A stretch of 64,000 nt of DNA from an uncultured Myxococcales bacterium (GCA_903936705.1 CAIZWN010000005.1:123883-187882), one strand, 5' to 3'. Positions 6,757 to 51,408 are shown, counted from the first letter of the stretch. Program-made: numbers and translations. The notes: generated by a model not told the origin, from the letters alone.

Positions 6757-9700
6757 ATGACCCATCACCTGCTTGGACGCATGACCGGTCTGCCGATGGC
6801 CTCAATCGCACTGCTTGCGGCACTTTGCCTGGCGCCGAATCGCTCTGTTGCTGAAGCCGCCGAACCGCCGCCAGGGGTGCAGCCCGACAGCTTGTACGTC
6901 GTTGCTGTATCGCACCTGGACACCGAGTGGTTATGGACGATCGTCGAAACGATCCGGGACTACATACCGGCAACCTTCCGCGACAACATGGATCTCCTGG
7001 ATCGGCACCCGGGATTCAAGTTCGGATTCGAGGGCGCCCACCGCTACTACATGCTGCGCGAGTACTACCCGGATTTGTGGCAACGCCTGAAGGGATACGT
7101 GGCAGACGGGCGATGGTCGCCTGCAGGAAGTGCGCTGGAAGGCGGCGACGTGAACATCGTTTCGCCCGAATCGCTGATGCGGCAGTTCCTTTACGGCAAC
7201 GGCTTTTTTCGGCGCGAATTCGGGCGCACAAGCGTCGATGTCTTCCTGCCGGATTGCTTCGGGTTCGGATGGGCCCTTCCATCGGTAGCCGCGCACTGCG
7301 GTTTGATCGGATTCTCGACGCAGAAGCTGACGTGGGGTTCCGCCTATGGCATCCCGTTCGACGTGGGCCGGTGGCGCGGTCCGGACGGCGCCGAGATCGT
7401 GGCGGCGTTGCGCCCGTGGAACTACGCGGCCGGCCTCGATGGAGACTGGACGCGCGCACAGCGCTGGACCGACGCGCTCGATCGGCAGGAGGCGGTGTCG
7501 GGCATGCGATTCGGATACGCATATTTCGGCGTAGGAGATCGAGGAGGTTCGGTAGGCGAGGATTCCGTTGCCAACCTTGAAACGAACATGGCCGATACAG
7601 GGCCGGTGCGCCTGAAATCCGAACCGCCGGACCAGTTCTTCAAGGACCTGACTCAGGACCAGTGGGCGGCACTTCCCGTGTACGACGGCGAACTGGTGCT
7701 AGCCACCCATGGGACAGGTTCCTACACGTCACAATGCGCGATGAAACGTTGGAACCGGCAGAACGAACAACTGGGGGACGCGGCCGAGCGAGCTGCGGTC
7801 GCAGCATCGTGGCTGGGCGGTCTGCCCTACCCCGCCGAATGGCTTGCAAACGCCTGGTTCCGCTTCCTTGTGCACCAGTTCCATGACGATGTAACGGGCA
7901 CCAGCATTCCCGAGGTCTACTCGAACTCGTGGAACGATGAACGACTGGCACAGCACCGGTTCGCTAGCGTTCTGTCGGCTGCGGCGGGATCGGTTGCTCG
8001 TGCCCTGGACACAACCTCAATCGGCGTACCGCTGGTCGTGTACAACGCGCTTGCAATCGATCGCGAAGATGTGGTCGAGGCCTTCGTGCGCTTTCCCGAA
8101 GCGCCGCCAGCGCATGTACGGGTGTTCGGTCCCGGTGGCGCAGAGGTACCCTCCCAGGTGATCGGCGAACGCGACGGGGCTGCCCGTATCGCCTTCCTGG
8201 CCAATGTGCCGGCAACCGGGTTTGCCGTGTACGACGTTCGCCCATCCGATGTTCCGTGCTCGCTTGCGACCGGACTGTCCGCAACGCAGGCAGGGCTTGA
8301 AAATGGCAGATACCGGGTCACGATCGACTCGAACGGTGACGTATCAAGCGTCTTTGACAAGGCGGCCGGCGTGGAAACCCTGGCCGGCCCCGTGCGGTTC
8401 GCAATGTTCAGCGACATGTCGCTAAGCTACCCGGCGTGGGAGATAACCTGGTACGACCTGGCCGAAGGCGCCAGGGAATACGTTTCGGCTGCCCCGACAA
8501 TCACGGTCGTCGAGGCAGGTCCCGCGAGGACCAGTGTTGAAATTCGACGCGAATATGCATCCGATCAGGGCACATCGACCTATGTTCAACGGCTGCGACT
8601 GGGCGCCGGAGGTTCGGGGGATCGCGTTGAATGGGATACCGAAATCGACTGGCACACCAGGATGTCACTGCTGAAAGTCGAGTTCCCGCTGAAGCATACG
8701 GCCCCCAAGGCCACCTTCGACCTTGGGCTTGGCGCAATTACACGGCCGAATTCCACACCGGATCTGTACGAGGTGCCTTCGCAACAGTGGGCGGATCTCA
8801 CGGCCCCCGACCTGTCCTATGGCGTCTCAATCCTCTCGCTTGACAAGGTGGGATGGCACAAGCCGGACGACGAAAAGCTGTATCTGACCCTTCTTCACAC
8901 GCCGATGTTACCCGAGCACCACCACGACACCAACGACATCGGGCACCATCACACTGGCTGGGCAATTTTCGGCCACACGGGGGACTGGACGAACGGTACC
9001 GTCCCGCAGGCCGCCAGGTTCAACCAGCCTCTGGTGGCATTTCAGGCGCCATCGCACGCCGGGACTCTGGGGCGTAGTTGGGGCCTCGCGCGGGTATCGG
9101 ATCCGGCGGTGGCCATTCGCGCCTTGAAGCAGGCCGAGGATTCCGACGAGGTCGTGGTGCGAATTCAGGAGACATCGGGAACGGCCCGGAACAACGTGCG
9201 CATTGAGATTGCGACGGGCATTGCCGAGGCACGCGAGGTCCGTGGTGACGAACAGCCGAAGGGCGAGGCTGTAATCGTTGACGGGTCGCTGATCACGAAC
9301 CTGACGGCCTTCCAGCCGCGAACGTTCGCGGTGCGACTGTCGGCGGCAGCAACCAGGCTTGCGCCTGCGGAATCAAGTCCGGTTGCACTGCCGTACGACA
9401 CGGACGTGCTGTCGTTCAACGAGGCACGGGCCGACGGCGCCTTTGACGTTGGTGCCGGCGTTGCCTGGGCTGCCGAGCAGTGGTCGTCGACGCTGGCCGT
9501 TGGTGGGGTCGATTTCCAACTGGGGCCATCGGCTGCCGGGCAATCCAACGCTGTTTCGTGCTTAGGACAGTCGATTGCCATCAATCCCCTTGAAGGCCAG
9601 CGCCTGAACCTGTTGGCCGCCGCCGTTGGGGATGTAGAGGCTACATTCCTTGTAGGCGACAAGCCCGTCGCACTTGCGGTTCAGGATCACGCGGGGTTCA

Positions 9701-22367: not shown

Positions 22368-22377
22368 GGGGTGCCCA

Positions 22378-22572
22378 GTGAGCGCGAAGGGACCGGACGT
22401 CTTTGCCCTGCGGGACGCGGTAGTCGGCGACTACCGGAAGTTCGCGACGTCGTTCACGACCATCTACGCGGACGACATCGTGGAGAAGCGGGACAGGAAG
22501 GCGTTCGGCTCGTACCGCACGAAGGATCTGATCCTGGCGGCCTACCAGCGCCTGGAGCGAGGTGCCACGTGA
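22378..22572 (+). CDS. Small hypothetical protein (64 aa), translationally coupled to the downstream gene
   Basis: GTG start; its stop TGA overlaps the GTG start of the next gene (GTGA at 22569-22572); no recognisable domain. Confidence 0.4.
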   Translation: MSAKGPDVFALRDAVVGDYRKFATSFTTIYADDIVEKRDRKAFGSYRTKDLILAAYQRLERGAT

Positions 22573-24230
22573 CCAGTGAACTTGAGGGCCAGGTCATCGA
22601 TCGCAAATCCCTGCGCGTGGTGACTGGCAGAGCCGCCGACTTCCAGGCGCTGGCCAACGACTGCGTGTGCTTCGCCAACAGCGCCGGAGGTACCTTGCTC
22701 ATCGGGATCGAGGACGAGGAGACCCACCCACCGCCGGACCAGCGGGTGGACCCGGCCCTCCTCGACCGCATCCGCAAGCGCATCGGGGAACTGACCGTCA
22801 ACGTCCAGGTGCTCCCGGAACTGGCCAGGGACGACAACGGCGGCGATTACATCCTGCTCCAGATACCGCGGTCTATGGGCGTGGCTTCGACCAGCGACGG
22901 TCGTTACTTCCTGCGAGTCGGCGACACCTGCCGCCCGGTCACCGGCGATGATGTGCTCCGCCTCGCAGATGAACGCCCGTCCGTCCCCTGGGAAACGATG
23001 ACCTCGCTGGGTGCGAAGGTGTCCGAGGTCGACCCGGCACAGGTTGGCCGGTTGACCGCGCGGCTCCGCGCTTCGGACCGGGTCAAGGACTCCGTGAAGG
23101 AGAAGTCTGACGGCGAGCTACTTGAACACTACAGGCTGGCCACCTCGGATGTCATGACGAACCTGGGCATCCTGCTGGTGGGTCGGCCGGCCAACCGGGC
23201 CCGGCTGGGGACAGCGCCAATTGTCCAAGCGATCCGATACGACGACCGGGGCGTGAAGGTCGGCAAGTTCGTCTGGGACGACTACGAGTTGTCTCCCTTC
23301 GAGCTGATCGACGCGATCTGGGCCAGCGTCCCCGACTTCAGGGAGAGCTACGAGTTCCCGGACGGCATGTTCCGGACAGCCGTGCCGGCGTTCGACGAGG
23401 CCGTCGTTCGGGAATTGCTGGTGAATGCCCTGGTGCACCGGCCGTACACGCAGCGAGGCGACATCTTCCTGAATCTCCACCCCGACCGGATGGAGGTCGT
23501 GAACCCTGGCCGACTGCCGCTGGGCGTCACCCCTAAGAACATCCTACACGCGAGCCGGCGCCGTAACGATGGGCTGGCCCGCATGTTCCACGACCTGAAG
23601 CTGATGGAGCGCGAAGGCAGCGGGTTCGACCTGATGTACGAGAAGTTGCTTGGCAGCGGGCGGACCGCGCCAGTCGTCACGGAGGGAGTGGACTCCGTGC
23701 ACGTCACCATCCCCCGGCGACTCGTTCACCCTGGGACCATCCGGTTGCTGTCCGACACCGACCAAAGGTTCCAGTTGACGCGGAGGGAGAGGATCGTCCT
23801 CGCGCTGCTGGCACAGTCCGAGGGGCTCAAGGCGTCGGAATTCGTGGACCGTCTGGAGCTGAATGACACGGAGAACATTCGTTACTGGCTGGGCCGCCTG
23901 ACCGACCTGGGCCTGGTAAGGCAGGTCGGACGGACCCGGGCCACCCGGTACTTCGTGGAGCCGGGCGTCCTCAAAGCCGCCGGGCTGGACGCGGTAACCA
24001 CGCTGACCAGGGTTGAATCATACCGCGTACAGGCGCTAATCCTTGAGGACCTAGGGCGCTACCCCGACTCGGCCATCTCCGAGATTCATCGCAGGATCGG
24101 GTCGGAGATTCCGCTGCGTCTGGTCCGTCGCGCTCTTGCAAGCCTGCTCGACGATAAGCGGATCCTGCCCCTCGGGGACCGCCGTTGGCGCAAGTATCGG
24201 CCGGCACCGCCTATTGACCGGGAACGATGA
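22569..24230 (+). CDS. AlbA_2 (divergent AAA/Schlafen-like) + HATPase_c_4 + winged-helix protein; putative DNA-binding regulator or defence-associated ATPase
   Basis: CFANSAGGTLLIGIEDE (AlbA_2 core); RELLVNALVHRPY...NPG...RRRN..LARMFHDLKLMEREGSGFD (HATPase_c_4 signature); C-terminal wHTH; annotated ORF upstream of 22569 is out-of-frame read-through. Confidence 0.7.
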   Translation: MTSELEGQVIDRKSLRVVTGRAADFQALANDCVCFANSAGGTLLIGIEDEETHPPPDQRVDPALLDRIRKRIGELTVNVQVLPELARDDNGGDYILLQIPRSMGVASTSDGRYFLRVGDTCRPVTGDDVLRLADERPSVPWETMTSLGAKVSEVDPAQVGRLTARLRASDRVKDSVKEKSDGELLEHYRLATSDVMTNLGILLVGRPANRARLGTAPIVQAIRYDDRGVKVGKFVWDDYELSPFELIDAIWASVPDFRESYEFPDGMFRTAVPAFDEAVVRELLVNALVHRPYTQRGDIFLNLHPDRMEVVNPGRLPLGVTPKNILHASRRRNDGLARMFHDLKLMEREGSGFDLMYEKLLGSGRTAPVVTEGVDSVHVTIPRRLVHPGTIRLLSDTDQRFQLTRRERIVLALLAQSEGLKASEFVDRLELNDTENIRYWLGRLTDLGLVRQVGRTRATRYFVEPGVLKAAGLDAVTTLTRVESYRVQALILEDLGRYPDSAISEIHRRIGSEIPLRLVRRALASLLDDKRILPLGDRRWRKYRPAPPIDRER

Positions 24231-27169: not shown

Positions 27170-28429
27170 TCAACCCTGTCCACCGGATGCCGCAGCGCCT
27201 TCCCAGGACAGAAGCCTGCGATCGCCCTGCAATTCCCGTTTCGCCGTTAGATCCTGGCTGACCTCCAGGGTCCCAAGGTACTTCCCTGCATCGTCACGCA
27301 ATGCCAGATATTCGATGTGAAGGAAGCGCCCCTTCATCGTCAGCCAGAACGCCGCGTTATCCTTCTGTCCGGCCTTGAATGCCGCCAGGATCTGCTCGAC
27401 CACGTGGACACTGTGGGGCGGGTGGCAGAATTGCACCTTGCGGCCCAGAATGGCGCGGTTGCGATCGAAAATGCGCTCCTTGCCCTGGGTGAAATACCTT
27501 ACGGTGTCGTCACTATCGACGAATGTCAGATCGAACGGAATCGTGTTCAGGATGGCCTGAAGTTCTGTTGGCGTGAACGCCCCGCTGGGCAATTGGATGC
27601 GCCCCTCATCAACCACCCTCGTCGCCGGCGCCGGCGAGAACCCTTCGGGCAACCAGACATCGGTCGGGTCGAACAGGCAATACCCGATCTCGTTGGACTG
27701 GCTGGCAATATCCATCCACTCGGCATCGTCCAGCGTATCCAGGCACATCGGCAGCAGGATTTGTTCCTCCTTGTCGATCATGCCCGAAAGCGCCTCGATG
27801 GCCGGCCGCAACAGCCGCGGCACCAGGGCGCGCGCCTCGTCCCCCTTCAGACCTACAGACGTCTCCAACGCCTGGATCGCGTTCTTCAGCAGTGCACGGG
27901 TCTCGTCGTGCTTGCCCCACATCACAGTTGGCGGCCCGGTGATTCCGTGCTTTTCCAGGTGCGGGAACAGCAGGTATTCCTTGCGACGGTAATGCTTGTC
28001 AACGTCCATCAGGGCGTTGAACCTGGCGCGAACCTGCTGCATCGGTTCCAAAACATCAGCATCGGCTGGCAAAGACTGCACCTCAACCAGGACACGTTCC
28101 AGATGCGTCAGTTCCCACTCGATGGCGCGATTCTCCTGCTGCATCGTGTGAACCGGATGTCCGGGCGGTGCCACCCCGGCGCCCTCCTGGCTGATGACGC
28201 CCTTCAACGCCGCGGTGTGGACATCGCACAGCCGCAAGACCTCGGCCATCGGCAGGCCTTCGGCGATCAACTCCTGTTCGACCTCCACGACCTCGCCGTA
28301 CGGCACATCGCCAAGCAGACGGGCAAGCATGGGCCTCACAGCCTCGGGAGCCTCCCCCCGGTGCAACTGGAGAATCATGTGTTTAAGCAGTTCCTTGCGC
28401 CGCTGGGCGTTGTTGATTAGTTCACTCAC
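27170..28429 (-). CDS. DUF438 / hemerythrin-like / PAS domain sensor protein
   Basis: N-terminal DUF438-like region, central HHE cation-binding motifs (HYRRKEYLLFPHLEKH, WGKHDE), C-terminal PAS-like segment. Confidence 0.6.
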   Translation of the reverse strand: MSELINNAQRRKELLKHMILQLHRGEAPEAVRPMLARLLGDVPYGEVVEVEQELIAEGLPMAEVLRLCDVHTAALKGVISQEGAGVAPPGHPVHTMQQENRAIEWELTHLERVLVEVQSLPADADVLEPMQQVRARFNALMDVDKHYRRKEYLLFPHLEKHGITGPPTVMWGKHDETRALLKNAIQALETSVGLKGDEARALVPRLLRPAIEALSGMIDKEEQILLPMCLDTLDDAEWMDIASQSNEIGYCLFDPTDVWLPEGFSPAPATRVVDEGRIQLPSGAFTPTELQAILNTIPFDLTFVDSDDTVRYFTQGKERIFDRNRAILGRKVQFCHPPHSVHVVEQILAAFKAGQKDNAAFWLTMKGRFLHIEYLALRDDAGKYLGTLEVSQDLTAKRELQGDRRLLSWEGAAASGGQG

Positions 28430-28508
28430 GAGTTTGCCTCCCTGGCTTCGATTCCGGGTAAGAACCGATGCAGGAGGCGTGCCAATTTCAGAGTCGCAGT
28501 TCCGAATT

Positions 28509-30104
28509 TCACGAGCGCGGCAAACGATCCAGGCCGTGGCGCTTCAGCTTGCCCTGCAATGTCGTTGGCTTCAGCCCCAGCAGCGCGGCAGCGCCGCCAG
28601 TTCCGTAGACGCGGCCATCGCTGGCATCCAGCGCCCGCCCCAGAATCAAGCGAACCTCGTCATCCCAGCGACCCGGCGCCTTCGATGCCAACGACTCCCT
28701 ACCGGCCTCCCAAGCGTGTATCGGTCCGCCACCAGGCAGCCCCGCCAATACCGGCTGCCTCCCTGACGCATCGGGCAGGACCAACTCGGTACCCGAATGC
28801 AGGATCAGCGCACGTTCGATGAAGTTCTCCAGTTCCCGCACGTTACCCGGCCAATCGGCCCTCTCCAGTTCCAGCCACGCCTCCTCGGACACGCGAGGGA
28901 CACGCCTGCTCATCGCGGCCGACAGCCGCGCCAGAAAATGCAGCACCAGCGGGCGAATGTCCTCACGATGCTCGCGCAGCGGTGGCAGCAAAATCGGAAA
29001 GGTGCTCAGGCGGTAGTAAAGGTCCGAACGAAACGCCCCCTGGCCAACCAGTGCCTCCAGGGGCCGGTTCGTCGCAGCAACCACGCGCACGTCCACCTTC
29101 ACCGGCAGCGTCCCGCCCACCCTCTGAATCTCGTGGTCCTGCAGCACCCTCAGCAGCTTTACCTGCACCGGCATTGGCGCGTCACCGATCTCGTCCAGGA
29201 ACAACGTCCCCTGGTCAGCCTGCTCGATACGCCCAATCCGCCGCGCCGTCGCCCCCGTGAATGCCCCTTTTTCATGCCCGAAAAGTTCGCTTTCAATCAG
29301 CGTCTCGGGAATCGCGCCCACATTGACCGTGACGAATGGCCCTCCGAACCTGGCGCTGTACTCATGTATCAGGCGCGCAAGCCCTTCCTTGCCCGTACCC
29401 GTTTCGCCACGAATCAGAACCGTTGCATTCGAGGCGGCCACACGCCGCGCCTGGTCCAGCACCTGCCGCATCAGCGGACTGTCGGCCACGTATCGCGCCT
29501 CGCCGCCGGTCAAACGTATCTGGTCCCTCAGGATTGCGTTTTCCCTGCCCAGCAGACGGTTCAACCGGCGAACCTCCTCGACCATCAAGCTGTTGTGCAA
29601 GGCGATGGCCACCAGGCCGGCCACACGCGCAGCACCGTCCAGGCAACAGTCCAGCAGACCGTGGCTTGATAGATGCGCGATGTCCAATGTCCCCAGCACG
29701 TGGTCCTCGAATACCAACGGGAAGGACACCAGCGCCCCATAGCCGTCCAAAGCCAAAATCCGCTCTTCGCGGCATCTGGGATTCGCGGCATCCAGTTGTT
29801 CCAACACGTTGGCCCGACGCTCGCCAATGGCCGGACCGCAAACCGAGTCCGATATCGGAATGATCAGCCCTACCGCCAATTCCCTTTGCGATTTCGGGTC
29901 ATCGACGAACAGGATTTCAACGACATCGGGATGCTCGGGGACCCAACGATGAATCGACAGTCTGGTCAAACCGAAATATTTCCGCATCAACTCTGCGGTT
30001 CGCTGTACGACCACCTGAATATCCATGGTCGACAGGATCGCGTGCAATGCCTCGTCTACAAGCCCTTCTCGGTTCCGGTGACCGGGACAGTGTTTCCGCT
30101 GCAT
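28509..30104 (-). CDS. Sigma-54-dependent transcriptional activator with N-terminal GAF domain(s) (NorR-like architecture)
   Basis: GETGTGKE Walker A, GAFTGA sigma-54 contact motif, C-terminal HTH; GAF-like N-terminus. Confidence 0.85.
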
Positions 30105-30288
30105 GAATCACGACCTCGCTTGGTACAAGTCACGGGCTTGGCAACTAAATATAGTTACCACACCCAAATTTCGGTAATTGTAAACCATATTTCGGTTACT
30201 GCCACCACAGGACCCGCGTCTTCGCGCATTATCAAGTTGGCACGCCTCATGCTCTTGTTCCCAATCGTTGACATCAAGGAGTTCCCCA

Positions 30289-30906
30289 ATGGACCCAATC
30301 GACGTACTGATGGACGAGCACCAGACGATCCTTGAAGTACTCGACGCCATGGACGGGTACGTGGCCAGGATCAATGACCAGGGGGCAGATCCGGCAGACC
30401 TTCGCAGTTTCACCGACTTCCTGCGTGGTTTTGCCGACACGTACCACCACGGCAAGGAGGAAGAGATCCTCTTTACGTCCCTGGTCGCGAACGGCTTCCC
30501 GCGAGACTCGGGGCCGATCGCGGTGATGCTGTACGAACACGAGGAGAGTCGAAAGAACGTAAGAGCACTGGTCCGACTTGCAGAACTCGCCGATCGACCC
30601 GCAGCCTGGGACGACGCCGAACGCATCAAAATTGCGACATATGCACGCAGCTATTCCTCCCTGCTGCGCTCGCACATCGAAAAGGAGGACCACATCCTGT
30701 ACCCAATGGCACGCCGCCACCTCCCGGCCCCACAGATGGAGGAAATTCGGTTAGAATTCGACAGTTTCGAGGAACAGCAAGGCACGACCGGACGACCTTC
30801 CGAGCTGAGGGCCTTGGCTGGTCGCCTGGTGTCGGCGTACGGCAGGACGGCCGGAAAGCTGGATGAGATTTCAGGTAAAGCGGCCGTCGCGGGCGCGGCG
30901 TCCTAA
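30289..30906 (+). CDS. Hemerythrin HHE cation-binding domain protein
   Basis: H..HH.KEEEILF ... E.EDHILYP motif pairs; divergent from the sigma-54 regulator. Confidence 0.7.
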   Translation: MDPIDVLMDEHQTILEVLDAMDGYVARINDQGADPADLRSFTDFLRGFADTYHHGKEEEILFTSLVANGFPRDSGPIAVMLYEHEESRKNVRALVRLAELADRPAAWDDAERIKIATYARSYSSLLRSHIEKEDHILYPMARRHLPAPQMEEIRLEFDSFEEQQGTTGRPSELRALAGRLVSAYGRTAGKLDEISGKAAVAGAAS

Positions 30907-30962
30907 GGCGACGAAACACCGCAGAATCGACAGGAATCTTTTTGATGCAGGGAGGAAATCAC

Positions 30963-31304
30963 ATGCCCATTCAGAAGCAGTCCGGCGGGTTGGATCCAGC
31001 AAAGTCGGTTCGACTGGCCGACCTCGTCGAATACCAGCCAGGATCGATCGTCAGCAGAACGCTGGTTCAGAAAACGGTTGGCTCGCTGACTCTGTTCGCC
31101 TTTGACGAAGGCCAGGGACTCAGCGAGCACTCGGCCCCATTTGACGCCTACGTCACGGTCCAGGACGGCATCGGGGAACTGGTAATCGGCGGCGTGGCTG
31201 TTTCCTGCGCAACCGGTGAAACTGTTTTGATGCCAGCAAACATCCCACACGCAGTCAACGCGCGTCAGCGATTCAAGATGCTGTTGACGATGATTCGCGG
31301 CTGA
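30963..31304 (+). CDS. Cupin-domain protein
   Basis: Small beta-barrel cupin pattern (G..EH....DAYV.V..G......GG). Confidence 0.55.
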   Translation: MPIQKQSGGLDPAKSVRLADLVEYQPGSIVSRTLVQKTVGSLTLFAFDEGQGLSEHSAPFDAYVTVQDGIGELVIGGVAVSCATGETVLMPANIPHAVNARQRFKMLLTMIRG

Positions 31305-35156: not shown

Positions 35157-35352
35157 CTTTCGGGGTGTGGCTATAATTGACCTCGCTGATCACCTGTCGG
35201 AAGCGGACTGCCTCAACTAATTGCTCTCGAAGAATCCGGGTCTACTCAACAACAGCCCTGTTCAACGATTTTTTTTGTTACGGACTTGAAAGCGGCTGCA
35301 AAATGCCTAAGCTAGTTGATAGGTCATATCAATAGTGACCCGGGAGAAGCCC

Positions 35353-36882
35353 ATGCGTCTTTGCCTCGAATGTCTGAAGCTGCATGGCGGGATGGGGGTC
35401 GAGTGCCCACTGGACGGGCATCGGACCTGGGCCGTTGCGCGGCCGACTGCCGCTACGGGTCGCGTATTAGGGGGTGATTTTGTTCTGCTGGAGGAACTGG
35501 CCCGAGGCGGCACATCCATAGTGTACCGGGCGGTCCGACGTTCCAAGGGCGATGAAATCGTGGTGAAGGTCGCGCAACGTGACTTGCCCGACGACCCGAT
35601 CGAGGAACTGCGTTTCCTGCGATCAGCAGCTTTGGCCGCCGATCTCAAGGGCACCCACTTCGTGGAGGTTCTGGGACATGGCCGTGCCCCAGACGGTACG
35701 CTGTTCCTGGCCATGGAGCGCCTTCGCGGACGTACGCTGTACGAAACGATGCAAGAGGACGGAATCCCGATGTCGCCAGCGCGAACCGCCAGCATCACCG
35801 TCCAGGTGCTGGAGGCGCTGGACCTGATCCACGATGCAGGGCTGATCCACCGAGACTTGAAACCCGAAAACATCTTCATGCTGGACGGGCCCGACGACCG
35901 ATTGAAGATACTGGACTTCGGCCTGGCCCGTTCAACCCGGTTCGCCGATCCAGCACTGACCGGCGAAGGTTTGGTGATCGGCACGCCGACTTACATGAGC
36001 CCCGAGCAGGGGTACGGGCGGACCCTGGACACCCGCAGCGACCTGTACTCTGTTGGCGTCCTGCTGTTCGAGTTGCTGTCGGGGCAGGTGCCGCACAATG
36101 ACGCGTCGTCTCTACGGGTCCTGATCAAGAAGGTGTCGGACAGGGCCCCGCGGATCAGCGATCTGGCGCCCCAGGCGGAAGTGCCGCTGCCTCTGGAGAA
36201 CCTGGTGGCCGACCTGCTGGAAGTGGAACCGGCCCGGCGTCCGGCGTCGGCCAGGCTGGCGATCCAGCGGTTACGTGAGGCCATCGACCTGGCCCACCAA
36301 GGCACTTCCGACCAAGAACAGGACGCCACGATCCCGGGTACGGAGGCCGTTTCAAAAGTCCGGCGCACCACCCGACCGACCCGGGTCCATGCGAACTCGA
36401 ACGCGTCGACACCGAAACTTGATCGAGCCCGGCCGCCAAACCTGCGGCTGGTTCGATTTTCGCCGTCGCTGGAAACCGGGATCCCCGCAGTGGACGACCA
36501 GCACCGGGCGCTTTTCGACCTGGCAGACCAGATCCTGGGCGGGCCTGAAAAGGGTTCGACTCCAGAGGACGTACGGCAGACCATCACCAGGCTCATCGAA
36601 TACGCCAGGCATCACTTCGAGGAGGAAGAAACAGCCATGGAGGCGGCAGGGTACAAGTGTCCGGAAGCGCACACACAGGATCATCAGCGCTTCACCAACA
36701 CCATGCTGCTTGTCTGCCAGCAGTCCGGAACGACCGGCGCCGTCCCGGCATGTCGAGACGAGGTCCGTCGCCAGATGACGCTGCTGGTTCGTCACATCCG
36801 AACCCTCGACCGCGCCTTTGCCGACTTTCTGAAGGCACGCGACACCATCGGAGCAAGTATCCCGGTCAGGTCACAAGGCTGA
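35353..36882 (+). CDS. Ser/Thr protein kinase fused to a C-terminal bacteriohemerythrin domain
   Basis: N-terminal Cys4 zinc-ribbon; Hanks kinase motifs (VAIK-like VKVAQ, HRDLKPEN, DFG, GTPTYMSPE); C-terminal DDQHRALF...YARHHFEEEE...H..DHQRF hemerythrin metal ligands. Confidence 0.8.
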   Translation: MRLCLECLKLHGGMGVECPLDGHRTWAVARPTAATGRVLGGDFVLLEELARGGTSIVYRAVRRSKGDEIVVKVAQRDLPDDPIEELRFLRSAALAADLKGTHFVEVLGHGRAPDGTLFLAMERLRGRTLYETMQEDGIPMSPARTASITVQVLEALDLIHDAGLIHRDLKPENIFMLDGPDDRLKILDFGLARSTRFADPALTGEGLVIGTPTYMSPEQGYGRTLDTRSDLYSVGVLLFELLSGQVPHNDASSLRVLIKKVSDRAPRISDLAPQAEVPLPLENLVADLLEVEPARRPASARLAIQRLREAIDLAHQGTSDQEQDATIPGTEAVSKVRRTTRPTRVHANSNASTPKLDRARPPNLRLVRFSPSLETGIPAVDDQHRALFDLADQILGGPEKGSTPEDVRQTITRLIEYARHHFEEEETAMEAAGYKCPEAHTQDHQRFTNTMLLVCQQSGTTGAVPACRDEVRRQMTLLVRHIRTLDRAFADFLKARDTIGASIPVRSQG

Positions 36883-39357: not shown

Positions 39358-39490
39358 CGGAAGACCCTCATTTTGGTTCGTATCAAGGTTAGCCGCAGAC
39401 GACTGGCAACAAAAGACTGTTTCACAAACATCCGTCCTGAACGTGCTGAACTGGCTTTGATTCAAGGCAAAGTTGCGCTATCATCACATG

Positions 39491-39505
39491 GCTAGACAGT
39501 CTAGC
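39491..39505. promoter_or_regulatory. Perfect palindrome GCTAGACAGTCTAGC about 20 bp upstream of phd/yefM; candidate TA autoregulatory operator
   Basis: Inverted repeat read directly from sequence in the AT-rich leader of the antitoxin gene. Confidence 0.5.
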
Positions 39506-39524
39506 TGTTTCATGGTGGTTCAGA

Positions 39525-39806
39525 ATGGGAACAAGCAATTCACCGCGATTGCCACACGACCGGGAATGGCAGCTTCAGGATGCCAAGAATCGTTTCAGCC
39601 AGGTGGTGGATTCGGCAGTGCATGATGGCGCTCAGACCATCACCTTGAGGGGGAAACCTGCGGCGGTAGTTGTCTCTTTCGACGAATACCGCAGGCTGAC
39701 ACAGCCACGCATCGGCTTGTCAGCGTTCTTCGAAAAATCCCCACTGCATGGCGTCGATCTTGATCTTGGCCGCAGTGCCGACCTGCCCCGAGAGGTGGAT
39801 TTGTGA
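39525..39806 (+). CDS. Phd/YefM-family antitoxin
   Basis: Typical Phd N-terminus (W.L.DAKNRFS.VVD.A..G.Q.ITLRGKPAAVVVS..EY). Confidence 0.8.
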   Translation: MGTSNSPRLPHDREWQLQDAKNRFSQVVDSAVHDGAQTITLRGKPAAVVVSFDEYRRLTQPRIGLSAFFEKSPLHGVDLDLGRSADLPREVDL

Positions 39807-40222
39807 AGTACCTTCTTGATACCTGCCTGATTTCCGAACTGGTGAAGAAGACGCCGAATTCAGCGGTCGTCAGGTGGCTGGACGAACAGGATGAACACAG
39901 CCTTTACCTCAGCGTCCTGACCATCGGAGAACTGCAGAAGGGGATCTGCAAACTTCCGGATGGTGCCCGAAAGGATGATCTTCATGCCTGGGTTGAAAAT
40001 GATCTTGCCCTGCGTTTTTCCGGACGAATCGTCGACGTTGACCTGGAAACCGTGCTGATCTGGGGCCGGTTGCTGGCACAGTCCGAACAGAAGGGCGTGA
40101 TTCTGCCGGTAACGGATTCGCTGATTGCAGCCACCGCAATAAATCACGGATTGGTTGTGGTTTCACGCAACGTCAAGGACATGGAAAGATGCCTGGTTAG
40201 CGTGTGCAATCCTTGGGCCTGA
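39803..40222 (+). CDS. VapC-type PIN-domain toxin
   Basis: LLDTCLISEL ... acidic PIN residues; GTGA overlap with the antitoxin stop. Confidence 0.8.
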   Translation: MKYLLDTCLISELVKKTPNSAVVRWLDEQDEHSLYLSVLTIGELQKGICKLPDGARKDDLHAWVENDLALRFSGRIVDVDLETVLIWGRLLAQSEQKGVILPVTDSLIAATAINHGLVVVSRNVKDMERCLVSVCNPWA

Positions 40223-40482
40223 TCCAGGCACCCGCATACGATTCGAGTCCTGTCGCAAATGAACAAATCGGTACGTCGCCAGATTGTGGCAATCGGATCG
40301 AAAAGAAACGGGCCGCGCCGAACGTTCGACTTTCCCCATCGTTGGGGAAGCTACCAGCCCGGCGCGGCCAGGGGCTCTTTGTCCGCCCCACAATAGGGAC
40401 GGCGCGGGTTCGGGGGCAATGGTCAAGACCTGGGCACGGGACCGGCGTCCTTGAACGCAGGTCATCTGGCCGTCGCCTCGAG

Positions 40483-40607
40483 CTCGAAGGGCGCAGCCCC
40501 AGGTTGTTGTTGCGGTTGCCCGGGTCGTTGTTGTTGCGGTTCGCAGCCCGGGCGTTCCTGGCATCGTTGTTCCAGGAGCCGCCCCGATTCACCCGGTTAG
40601 AGCCCGT
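40483..40607 (-). repeat. DGR template repeat (TR), sense strand minus; overlaps the 3' end of the RT gene
   Basis: 125-bp match to 42638-42762 with 17 mismatches, all at TR adenines (T on the plus strand); TR translation is AAC/Asn-rich (NRVNRGGSWNNDARNARAANRNNNDPGNRNNN). Confidence 0.9.
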
Positions 40608-48656: not shown

Positions 48657-48815
48657 GGGCCGGTTCCGGGGGTGCTCCGGAGGGAGCCGTCGGAGGCGCG
48701 GCCCACCATACGGGGGAAATAGATGATTGGGCCGCGCCGAGACTGCAGGAGGCCGGTGGGGGCAGAGCCCCCGCCGGAACTCCGGTCCCGGAGGGGCACC
48801 CCCGGAACCGGCCCT
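48657..48815. other. Highly structured intergenic element: 19-bp perfect long-range inverted repeat (GGGCCGGTTCCGGGGGTGC / GCACCCCCGGAACCGGCCC) enclosing two strong internal hairpins
   Basis: IR arms at 48657-48675 and 48797-48815; internal stems GGCGCGGCCC/GGGCCGCGCC (48702-48738) and CCGGTGGGGGC-agag-CCCCCGCCGG (48751-48775); flanking CCGGAGGG direct repeats. Confidence 0.5.
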
Positions 48816-48941
48816 CCGTAGAGTCACGCTATCGCCAACCGGCTCCAATTACTGCGCCACCTGGGATCTTCGACCTTCTTGTTCCTTGAAGGCCGTCCAG
48901 CAATCGGCCAGAATCGTTCGCAGTCCGGCCAGGGGGTCCCG

Positions 48942-51053
48942 ATGCTATCGTGGCGCGACAGGGGTTCAAATGGCGCGCCGGCGCGGCTTGCTGTGCAGGC
49001 TGTGCTGACAATGCTGGCAACGTTCGCGACTGCGTGCGGCGGTTCTGACGTGACGCCGTCGCAGCCCGGGGACGTGCCGCAGGATGGCGCTGTTGACGTT
49101 TACACCGACCTGCCCGGCGAGGTACCGCTTGATGTTCTTTTCGATACTACGCCGGACAATCCAGGGCCGGACGATTCTGGACAAGACACCACGGGACCGG
49201 TTGATACTGGACCGGACGACCTGGGGCCAACGTCCCTGTTGCCGCCCCTTCCGCTGCGCGTGGAAGGAAGGAACATCGTGGACGCCACTGGACACAGGGT
49301 GCGCCTTCAGGGTGTCAACTGGGACGGCGGGCACCAGGAGGATTTCGTTCCCTATGGGTTGGACTATCACACACCTGCCGAAATCGCGGGCAAGCTGCGG
49401 AAAATGGGCTTCAATTCGGTCCGGCTGACCTACAGCGACCGGATGGTTCGCGACGATCCCGTCCCCCCCGACGGGAGGCTGGCTGCGAATCCCAGCCTGC
49501 AGGGAAAAGGCGCGCTGGCGACATTCGACGCAGTGGTTAATGCATTGGCAGCCGAGGGGATCCTGATCATCCTGAACAACCACACGTCCGACGCCACCTG
49601 GTGCTGTTCCCTGGATGACGACAACTACCTCTGGCACAACTCGCGCTTCAGCGAGGCAGACTGGATGGCAGACTGGGTCAAGCTGATCCGCAGGTACCGT
49701 GACGTCCCGGCCGTGGTGGGGGCCGACCTGCGCAACGAACCGCGCCAGCCAGCCCAGTGGGGAACAGGCGGCGGGATCGAGACCGACTGGCCCTCGGCGG
49801 CCGAACGCTGCGGCACGGCGTTGCTGGCCGAGAATCCCGACCTGGTGATCCTGGTCGAAGGCGTCGTGTTCGCGAACGACCTGTCGGGCGCCGCCGCGCG
49901 GCCCGTAAACCTCCCGGCGGCGCACCTGGCCTACTCGGCCCATGACTATGGATGGGCCCTGCCAGCCAGTGCCGACACATACGACGACTTTGCGATGGTC
50001 GCGGACAGCATGTGGGGGTACCTGCTGTCGGCCCAGCCGCCCTCCCCCGTTTGGCTGGGCGAGTTCGGCTGCTTTCACCGCGAGATCGGCAACAAGTGGT
50101 GGCCGTGGATCAGCCGCTATATCGCCGAACGGGAACTGGACTGGTCGTTGTGGACGATCTTCGCCTATGGCGGCTGGACATGGGGCCTGCTGGATCCGAT
50201 CACGCTGGAACCTGCGGACCGCGCGTTCTGGGAATCGGTTAAGGCGCTGATGACGCCGGAACCAATCGTCCCGATCCCCGAGGTAGAGCCGATCCCGGAC
50301 CAGCCAGTCGAAGACAGCGGCCCGGCATCGGATGCCGAGGTTATCGAAACGGTTGAAGGTCCCGGCCCCGAGGTCCAGTGGGTCACCATTCCAGGCGGGA
50401 CGCTTCGGATGGGGGCGACTGACCTGGGGTTGTTGTCGCAGCCGGTGCTGGACGTGACGGTCCCCTCGTTCCGCATCGGGCGTACCGAGGTCACCGCGGC
50501 CCAGTACGCCGCGTGCGTTACGGCCGCGGCATGCACGGCCCCGAACGGCAGCCAGGTCGGGGACGACGCCCCGGTCCAGTGGGTGACGTGGGACCAGTCG
50601 AAGGCGTTCTGCGCATGGGCAGGCGGGCAACTGTGCACCGAAGCCCAGTGGGAACTGGCGGCTGGAAACGGTTCGATGGGCAGCCGGTATCCTTGGGGGA
50701 ACCAGGCACCCACATGCGCCGATGCCGTGTGGAACGGGCCTGGCTGCCTGGACCTGGGCCCAGCGAATGCCTGCTCGAGGCCTGCTGGCAACAACGTGTG
50801 GGGGCTGTGCGACCTGGCCGGGAACGTGATGGAGTGGGTGGAGGACGATTGGCACGCCTCCCATCTGGCAGCGCCGACCAACGGCAGCGCCTGGGTGGAC
50901 GATCCGCGTTCATCGGCCCGCGTATTGAAGGGCGGCGGTTTCGCCCACAACTTTGCCGACGGTCTACGGACGGCCTGGCGGGACAGGGGAATGGCTGGAG
51001 ACAACGCTGCCATGTTCGGAACGCGATGCTGCGGGACGCCTGCGGCCCCGTGA
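48942..51053 (+). CDS. Lipoprotein with GH5 (cellulase-family) glycoside hydrolase domain fused to a C-terminal FGE-sulfatase/C-type-lectin-fold domain
   Basis: Lipobox FATACGG; GH5 features (NEP catalytic acid in RNEPRQP, IIILNNHT); C-terminal RIGRTEVT..QY..C ... GLCDLAGNVMEWVEDDW ... VLKGGGF. Confidence 0.65.
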   Translation: MLSWRDRGSNGAPARLAVQAVLTMLATFATACGGSDVTPSQPGDVPQDGAVDVYTDLPGEVPLDVLFDTTPDNPGPDDSGQDTTGPVDTGPDDLGPTSLLPPLPLRVEGRNIVDATGHRVRLQGVNWDGGHQEDFVPYGLDYHTPAEIAGKLRKMGFNSVRLTYSDRMVRDDPVPPDGRLAANPSLQGKGALATFDAVVNALAAEGILIILNNHTSDATWCCSLDDDNYLWHNSRFSEADWMADWVKLIRRYRDVPAVVGADLRNEPRQPAQWGTGGGIETDWPSAAERCGTALLAENPDLVILVEGVVFANDLSGAAARPVNLPAAHLAYSAHDYGWALPASADTYDDFAMVADSMWGYLLSAQPPSPVWLGEFGCFHREIGNKWWPWISRYIAERELDWSLWTIFAYGGWTWGLLDPITLEPADRAFWESVKALMTPEPIVPIPEVEPIPDQPVEDSGPASDAEVIETVEGPGPEVQWVTIPGGTLRMGATDLGLLSQPVLDVTVPSFRIGRTEVTAAQYAACVTAAACTAPNGSQVGDDAPVQWVTWDQSKAFCAWAGGQLCTEAQWELAAGNGSMGSRYPWGNQAPTCADAVWNGPGCLDLGPANACSRPAGNNVWGLCDLAGNVMEWVEDDWHASHLAAPTNGSAWVDDPRSSARVLKGGGFAHNFADGLRTAWRDRGMAGDNAAMFGTRCCGTPAAP

Positions 51054-51091
51054 AGTGACAGCCCGAAAGGAAGCGGCAACCCGCGGCTAAC

Positions 51092-51195
51092 CTACCCCTT
51101 CTTGGCGGCGTCCTTCGCCTTCTTCTCTTTCTTTTCCTTGACGGTCAGCTTCGGCTTCTTGGTGTTCTTCTTCGGTTTGTCGAGTCCCTTTGGCA
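51092..51195 (-). CDS. Small lysine-rich protein (34 aa, MPKGLDKPKKNTKKPKLTVKEKKEKKAKDAAKKG)
   Basis: Strong RBS GAGGGGG 7 nt upstream of ATG; below the ORF-track size cutoff; about 40% Lys. Confidence 0.4.
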
Positions 51196-51408
51196 TGGTT
51201 CATCCCCCTCGAATGAAGTAAACGCAGGAACTTTCAAGACAGTTTCTGGTTCCTGTGTGGAGTATGGCGGAGGCCTGGAACAGGGTCAAGCTGGTGCGCG
51301 CCTGCGACAGAATATCTTCACCACAACGCGACATATCGCATGAAACGGCACTGGAAACGCGAAAGCGCATTGGGGTATCCTGCCGCGGCCACTGGCGAAG
51401 AGGATCTG

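Follow-up and report, generated by a model that had tools for sequence, protein, structure and literature searches.

The characterised bacterial hemerythrin fusions, namely DcrH-MCP, Bhr-DGC, Bhr-HD-GYP and a P1B-5 ATPase, regulate their fused domain through the diiron site, either by its binding of O2 or by a change in its redox state (PMC9388753). Hemerythrin partners listed in the portions of two surveys covered here comprise methyl-accepting chemotaxis proteins (MCPs), GGDEF domains, histidine kinases, and CheY and GGDEF combinations (PMC2556348; PMC4919030), with HD-GYP domains and P-type ATPases as further partners (PMC9388753). Here we describe a gene from an uncultured Myxococcales bacterium, located on a 64,000-nucleotide (nt) stretch of DNA (GCA_903936705.1 CAIZWN010000005.1:123883-187882, hereafter the window), which encodes a 509-amino-acid (aa) protein joining a Hanks-type Ser/Thr kinase to a C-terminal bacteriohemerythrin domain. 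Within the portions covered here, the hemerythrin surveys do not mention a Ser/Thr kinase among the partners (PMC2556348, PMC4919030 and PMC9388753, the architecture figure of PMC4919030 aside), nor is hemerythrin mentioned in the main text of a classification of prokaryotic kinases and a survey of the kinases of Planctomycetota. A literature search combining hemerythrin with Ser/Thr, Hanks or eukaryote-like kinase likewise returned no description of a kinase–hemerythrin architecture. The window protein is a known sensor module on a previously undescribed output, and the sequences concerned are already public under automated names.

Several described systems resemble parts of this protein. DcrH of Desulfovibrio vulgaris (PDB 2avk, 2awc) also combines a C-terminal bacteriohemerythrin, with the same seven ligands, and a cytoplasmic signalling output, but this output is an MCP feeding CheA/CheY in a membrane-anchored protein with a HAMP domain, whereas the window protein is a predicted soluble Hanks kinase. 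Bhr-DGC of Vibrio cholerae and Bhr-HD-GYP of Ferrovum sp. are soluble polypeptides in which the redox or O2 state of the hemerythrin diiron site controls a fused enzyme (PMC9388753). They provide the mechanistic template adopted here for the window kinase, although their hemerythrin is N-terminal and their output is cyclic di-GMP (c-di-GMP) turnover, as opposed to a C-terminal hemerythrin and a presumed output of Ser/Thr phosphorylation in the window protein. The closest sequence of known structure, McHr of Methylococcus capsulatus (4xpx), shares the seven ligand motifs and a pocket leucine (L114, equivalent to L478 here) but is a single-domain O2 carrier without a signalling output. Among kinases, PknB of Mycobacterium tuberculosis has the same kinase domain fold, but the window protein lacks its PASTA repeats and membrane segment. 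PknG of M. tuberculosis is, like the window protein, a soluble Hanks kinase, and its metal-binding rubredoxin-like domain, located beside the catalytic core, is the closest parallel for such a kinase carrying an accessory domain with a metal centre (PMC8546545); it differs in its Cys4 rubredoxin site and TPR repeats, where the window protein has a hemerythrin tail.

Domain composition of the fusion protein

Judged by its sequence and predicted fold, the C-terminal domain is a canonical bacteriohemerythrin with its full set of ligands. It exceeded the cut-offs of both the NCBIfam model TIGR02481 (hemeryth_dom; 82.2 bits vs 51.75, aa 369-493) and the Pfam model Hemerythrin (PF01814; 39.0 bits vs 25.3, aa 376-487). 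The seven predicted diiron ligands (H384, H421/E425, H440/H444 and H481/D486) are all present and reproduce the diiron signature H-HxxxE-HxxxH-HxxxxD, i.e. five His, one Glu and one Asp (PMC9388753). Searched as a regular expression, the complete signature matched only once across the six frames of the 64-kb window, hence this is not a chance match. These seven ligands are invariant in six fusion proteins whose hemerythrin domains share only 25-43% identity. The nearest solved sequences were McHr (4xpx, E=5.3e-11) and DcrH-Hr (2avk, E=3e-8). The McHr alignment covers essentially the whole domain with the ligand motifs in register, and places L478, three residues before H481, opposite McHr Leu114, i.e. 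the residue that PDB entries 4xpw, 4xpy and 4xq1 carry in mutated form.

Structure prediction yielded a consistent picture. The AlphaFold model of aa 360-509, with a predicted local distance difference test score (pLDDT) of 86.8, contains four helices, which in the full-length model (pLDDT 85.8) span aa 378-395, 404-431, 438-457 and 464-499. All 14 top Foldseek matches in the PDB were hemerythrins, with target-normalised template modelling (TM) scores of 0.74-0.84 except for the 13th, and the best of them was DcrH-Hr (TM 0.84, root-mean-square deviation (rmsd) 2.3 Å, 26% identity). An earlier reading of this DNA made without database searches (hereafter the sequence-only reading) had proposed both a Hanks-type kinase and a C-terminal hemerythrin, and had staked the latter on the hemerythrin profile and on structure prediction, both of which support it. 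All three of the motifs in which it had placed the ligands, DDQHRALF (aa 381-388), YARHHFEEEE (aa 417-426, with H421 and E425) and HTQDHQRF (aa 440-447, with H440 and H444), are present, but it had omitted a fourth, HIRTLD. The protein thus unites on one polypeptide conserved iron ligands and a fused functional domain, two of the features by which Kitanishi 2022 described hemerythrin sensors, alongside an enlarged substrate tunnel, fast autoxidation and a catalysis that depends on O2 or redox state (PMC9388753).

The kinase claim of that reading also held. The Pfam Pkinase model (PF00069) scored 132.9 bits against a cut-off of 31.7, and the catalytic residues K72, H166-R167-D168, K170, N173, D188-F189-G190 and S216-P217-E218 are all present and conserved within the fusion family, as are T203 and T211 of the activation loop. 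Across 65 related kinases these catalytic and activation-loop positions are invariant, except for R167 and T203, which are nearly so, and S216. The Gly-loop reads ARGGTS, with G52 and G53 retained. The kinase model adopts a bilobal fold that superimposes on M. tuberculosis PknB (1o6y) with a TM score of 0.90 and an rmsd of 2.0 Å at 32% identity, and overall the kinase looks active, RD-type and PknB-like. We rejected an identity as a PASTA kinase, since the corresponding model NF033483 (PASTA kinase PknB/Stk1) reached only 229 bits against a cut-off of 450, with an alignment restricted to the kinase part, and no hydrophobic segment was found anywhere in the protein (highest Kyte-Doolittle 19-mer, 1.14). 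The fusion protein is accordingly predicted to be soluble and cytoplasmic, and any signal it perceives would therefore be intracellular. The two domains are connected by a linker predicted to be disordered, with pLDDT below 50 over aa 330-365, and an RRxTRP-like stretch related to that of the linker is also found in short-form relatives (see below).

At the N-terminus, the protein displays a Cys motif, C4-x2-C7-x10-C18-P-x-D21-G22, reminiscent of a zinc ribbon or rubredoxin knuckle. The zinc ribbon named in the sequence-only reading corresponds to this CxxC-x10-CPxDG motif. A zinc ribbon has two knuckles that supply four Cys/His ligands, but the motif includes only three Cys (C4, C7 and C18) with an Asp (D21) at the fourth position, and no Pfam zinc-ribbon model matched the fusion protein at E<=1. 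C4, C7, C18, P19 and G22 are invariant in the six fusion-family members, with Asp or His at position 21, and the region is confidently modelled (pLDDT >=95) with short beta strands. Motifs of the same type were detected in 46 of 268 related kinases, in 43 cases N-terminally, and the residue at the fourth position of these 46 motifs (D in 36, C in 6, H in 3 and E in 1) is always a possible metal ligand. Because the motif is common to many non-fusion kinases of the clade, it is not specific to the fusion, and a plausible interpretation is that of a clade-wide structural metal knuckle rather than the sensor.

A single open frame covers 35335/35353..36882 on the plus strand. ATG 35353 is the likely start codon, rather than GTG 35335, because a Shine-Dalgarno-like GGGAG lies 6 nt upstream of it, homologues start at an aligned MRxC, and a public 509-aa protein (P0343) is identical to the window protein, start included. 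A scan for promoters and terminators between 34600 and 37200 yielded no signal exceeding shuffled expectation.

Distribution and origin of the fusion

At least 13 contigs encode the identical 509-aa protein; they come from several samples and different assemblers, and the longest of them reaches 384 kb. Five divergent relatives display the same two-domain architecture in one reading frame. Three of them are short forms, namely P0002 (519 aa, 48% identity to the window protein), P0003 (492 aa, 41%) and P0130 (492 aa, 39%), while the other two, P0127 (682 aa, 38%) and P0129 (685 aa, 37%), are long forms in which a helical region of ~220 residues replaces the short linker, so that linker length within the family is either ~45 or ~220 residues. 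The existing annotation of these proteins gives little indication of their architecture: MBM4394291.1, a member of the P0129 cluster from a Deltaproteobacteria metagenome-assembled genome (MAG), and MBP7126089.1, a member of the P0130 cluster from the Myxococcota MAG GCA_017994695.1, are both merely labelled "protein kinase" at NCBI. Within the 492-aa branch (P0003, P0130 and P0335; loci L002 and L167, the latter at 8001-9479), the hemerythrin domain falls under the Pfam threshold, with 18.4 bits in P0003 and no match in P0130, even though the alignment shows all seven diiron ligands retained in both. Precomputed annotation of this branch is therefore limited to Pkinase, and automated surveys of domain architecture would overlook its members.

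The sequence-only reading had called the fusion uncommon, which agrees with the approximately six 90%-identity clusters recovered across collections of 5.8-15 billion proteins. Their named sources are all Myxococcota or "Deltaproteobacteria" MAGs. No further full-length match was obtained from the search of 5.8 billion proteins, nor among the top 150 matches from 1.84 billion representatives. Among the best 80 hemerythrin matches on metagenome contigs of the Joint Genome Institute (JGI), two were kinase fusions and the remainder were mostly single-domain hemerythrins. When GTDB species genomes were scanned with the family alignment (kinase motifs), the 80 loci listed were generic kinases, none of which had a hemerythrin beside it. 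The fusion thus appears to be rare, and independent kinase–hemerythrin fusions may exist elsewhere.

We then built a neighbour-joining tree from the kinase domains only (aa 31-310) of 65 kinases, with 50 bootstraps, in which the six fusion proteins were monophyletic in 48 of 50 replicates. This points to one ancient fusion event, since retained through divergence to about 37-48% identity, and hence to long-term selection on the domain combination.

Candidate input signals

Taken together, the domain composition and the precedents lead us to favour, with moderate confidence, a model in which the O2 or redox state of the diiron domain controls the fused kinase. The C-terminal diiron site would act as the input module, and a change in the four-helix bundle would be relayed to the RD-type, PknB-like kinase, where it would either increase or decrease the autophosphorylation of the activation loop (T203/T211/T213) and the phosphorylation of substrates. 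This relay could involve docking within the molecule, across the flexible linker of ~45 residues, or altered dimerisation, and the Thr/Ser/Arg-rich linker itself (RRTTRPTR) may serve as an autophosphorylation or docking site. Some points weigh against this model. Bacterial hemerythrin sensors autoxidise rapidly (PMC9388753), so that O2 and redox sensing are inseparable by sequence. The domain also scored 73.8 bits against the narrower NCBIfam model NF033749 (bact_hemeryth), under its cut-off of 84, and the gene context at four loci (the window, L084, L086 and L167) suggests no substrate, phosphatase or FHA partner. As for this small Myxococcota-type family being the first known case in which a eukaryote-like Ser/Thr kinase is gated directly by a hemerythrin with its non-heme diiron site, we consider the chances evenly balanced.

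Other inputs can be envisioned for the same diiron site. Hemerythrin diiron sites are established to bind NO and to react with peroxide, and the domain might instead sense oxidative or nitrosative stress, with the kinase triggering a stress response. Mycobacterial hemerythrin-like proteins have been tied to the H2O2 response, in the portion of PMC4295536 covered here. Two HHE-type hemerythrin genes also flank a GAF-sigma54 activator gene 4.4-8 kb upstream of the fusion, one of them (212 aa) with weak, below-cut-off matches to models of the RIC/YtfE type (iron-sulfur repair). This neighbourhood is however absent at L084 and L086, the sequence and fold are nearest to O2-binding and O2-sensing hemerythrins, and NO and O2 reactivity are indistinguishable in sequence; overall, we regard an NO or peroxide sensor as unlikely. 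Slightly less likely still is a sensor of iron availability, in which the domain would fold or be stabilised only when iron-loaded, so that kinase activity or stability would report cytoplasmic Fe(II). The folding and stability of the hemerythrin-like domain of mammalian FBXL5 depend on iron loading in this way, the same seven-ligand site would suffice, and the window also includes a gene for a CorA-family divalent-cation (Mg2+-type) transporter along with the HHE/RIC-like di-iron genes. The domain nevertheless belongs to the O2-binding bacteriohemerythrin class (TIGR02481, with McHr and DcrH-Hr as nearest relatives) and not to the FBXL5 or HHE classes, and no iron-homeostasis genes are linked to the fusion at any of the four loci.

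It is also conceivable, if quite improbable, that the hemerythrin is non-regulatory, e.g. a dimerisation module or scaffold, a local O2 store or a substrate recruiter, with control exerted elsewhere, such as by the Cys motif or the linker. The long disordered linker, with its variable length, argues against a rigid signalling helix, and PknB-type kinases are activated by dimerisation. Conversely, a scaffold would not need seven ligands and a pocket Leu strictly kept over deep divergence, and the characterised hemerythrin fusions all use the hemerythrin as a sensor (PMC9388753). Finally, as most homologue contigs are short metagenome fragments, we considered an assembly chimera, a frameshift that had merged two genes, or a pseudokinase in decay, the probability of which is close to nil: the identical protein recurs across contigs that differ in sample and assembler, the same architecture is seen in five divergent relatives, and every catalytic residue and metal ligand has been retained. 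We therefore rejected the chimera and pseudokinase readings.

If the O2/redox model is correct, the window kinase would represent a one-protein route from the intracellular O2 or redox state to bacterial Ser/Thr phosphorylation, and Hanks kinases would join chemotaxis, c-di-GMP signalling and P-type ATPases among the outputs of hemerythrin. To our knowledge, a physiological signal has been established for very few bacterial Hanks-type kinases. Known sensor domains of Hanks kinases are mostly extracellular (PASTA, beta-propellers), and few inputs of cytoplasmic kinases are known. The fusion would be rare among soluble Hanks kinases in having a defined small molecule as its input. The combination of domains is not conceptually surprising, and its value lies instead in providing a tractable model of signal input: hemerythrin is an input with well-understood chemistry and spectroscopic signatures, here on a small soluble kinase, which makes the protein a tractable system for the control of a bacterial Ser/Thr kinase by a ligand-binding domain.

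Genomic context and other features of the window

Upstream of the fusion gene (Table 1), the window encodes a PfkB kinase and a UPF0047 protein, the latter separated from the fusion gene by 196 nt, while on its other side a convergent PQQ-type beta-propeller gene overlaps the fusion gene by 12 nt. Neighbours differ at the loci of homologues, with a PAF-AH-like hydrolase at L084, MutL and DksA at L086, and a divergent Pkinase-PilZ gene and a peptidyl-prolyl isomerase (PPIase) at L167. With contexts differing in all four loci, no conserved operon or partner gene was identified, and the fusion gene behaves as a stand-alone unit without a conserved partner. The divergent gene at L167 (GCA_017994695.1, 6196-7794), adjacent to the 492-aa orthologue, encodes a Pkinase-PilZ fusion and thus possibly a c-di-GMP-binding Ser/Thr kinase.

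Table 1. Coordinates of the fusion gene, its domains and motifs, and other features of the window (aa, residues of the fusion protein; ORF, open reading frame; DGR, diversity-generating retroelement)
Feature	Position	Strand	Evidence or remark
Kinase–hemerythrin fusion gene, stop codon included	35353..36882	+	Complete ORF, 509-aa product
GGGAG, Shine-Dalgarno-like	35342..35346	+	Read from sequence
N-terminal Cys motif, zinc-ribbon or rubredoxin-knuckle-like	35353..35442	+	Cys motif read in sequence
Hanks-type Ser/Thr kinase catalytic domain, aa 45-300	35485..36252	+	Pfam Pkinase E=1.8e-38
Ser/Thr/Arg/Pro-rich linker with KVRRTTRPTR, aa ~324-365	36322..36447	+	Predicted disordered
Bacteriohemerythrin domain, aa 369-495, four-helix bundle	36457..36837	+	TIGR02481, PF01814, predicted fold
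Predicted iron ligand H384, in DDQHRALF	36502..36504	+	Invariant; aligned with McHr first motif DDQH
Predicted iron ligands H421 and E425, HFEEE (HxxxE motif)	36613..36627	+	Invariant; aligned with McHr HFKSEE
Predicted iron ligands H440 and H444, HTQDH (HxxxH motif)	36670..36684	+	Invariant; aligned with McHr HKAEH
Predicted iron ligands H481 and D486, HIRTLD, aa 481-486 (HxxxxD motif)	36793..36810	+	Invariant; aligned with McHr HIPKVD
Schlafen AlbA_2, HATPase_c_4 and winged-helix protein	22371-24230	+	Putative transcriptional-regulator/ATP-dependent DNA-helicase-like
HHE/GAF-sigma54 cluster	27170-30906		
DUF438, Hemerythrin and PAS_10 gene	27170..28429	-	PF01814 HHE-type
GAF-sigma54 activator gene	28509..30104	-	Flanked by two HHE-type genes
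212-aa single-domain HHE protein gene	30268..30906	+	PF01814 HHE-type
Small cupin gene	30942..31304		Downstream of 212-aa HHE gene
61-nt direct repeat	40238-40298 and 47893-47953		80% identical
Complete DGR	40477-44778	-	
DGR template repeat, 131 nt	40477-40607	-	
DGR reverse transcriptase	40589..41650	-	RVT_1, IGNLTSQ and YMDD motifs
DGR HRDC-domain accessory ORF	41957..42466	-	
DGR target gene, 717-aa FGE-sulfatase	42625..44778	-	C-type-lectin fold
DGR variable repeat	42632-42762	-	3' end of target gene
TPR/PEGA protein gene	44775..46025		Next after second kinase gene
Second Hanks kinase, 576 aa	46040..47770	-	Kinase domain 40% identical to fusion kinase
Second FGE-sulfatase-domain protein, fused to GH5 cellulase domain	48879-51053	+	

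The sequence-only reading had also placed the fusion near other hemerythrin sensors. The window does include the two PF01814 genes mentioned above, but these are HHE-type and neither matches TIGR02481 (the DUF438-Hemerythrin-PAS_10 gene has no NCBIfam match at all), several unrelated genes lie between them and the fusion, and no HHE-type genes were detected near the homologues at L084 and L086, the two loci tested. A functional link between the fusion kinase and these genes is thus unsupported. The HHE genes, the GAF-sigma54 activator gene and the cupin gene might form a separate regulatory unit responsive to NO, redox state or iron.

A second Hanks kinase is encoded in the window. It bears the same N-terminal CxxC...CPxDG motif as the fusion kinase, and its C-terminal region includes a tandem repeat (46182-46331) with a 15-nt unit that encodes the 5-aa sequence PVVAx.

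The window also contains a complete DGR, comprising a reverse transcriptase, an accessory ORF, a template repeat, and a variable repeat within a target gene. Its two repeats share 85% identity, and at 17 of their 19 mismatches a template A has given way to G or T in the variable copy. A repeat scan of 39400-51200 reported no second copy of the 131-nt repeat in this region, which also includes a second FGE-sulfatase-domain protein, this one fused to a GH5 cellulase domain. Of the two copies of a 61-nt direct repeat, one lies close downstream of the DGR template repeat and the other close upstream of the gene for the second kinase. Further upstream in the window, a Schlafen-type gene combines AlbA_2, HATPase_c_4 and winged-helix domains, an architecture often found near mobile or defence loci.

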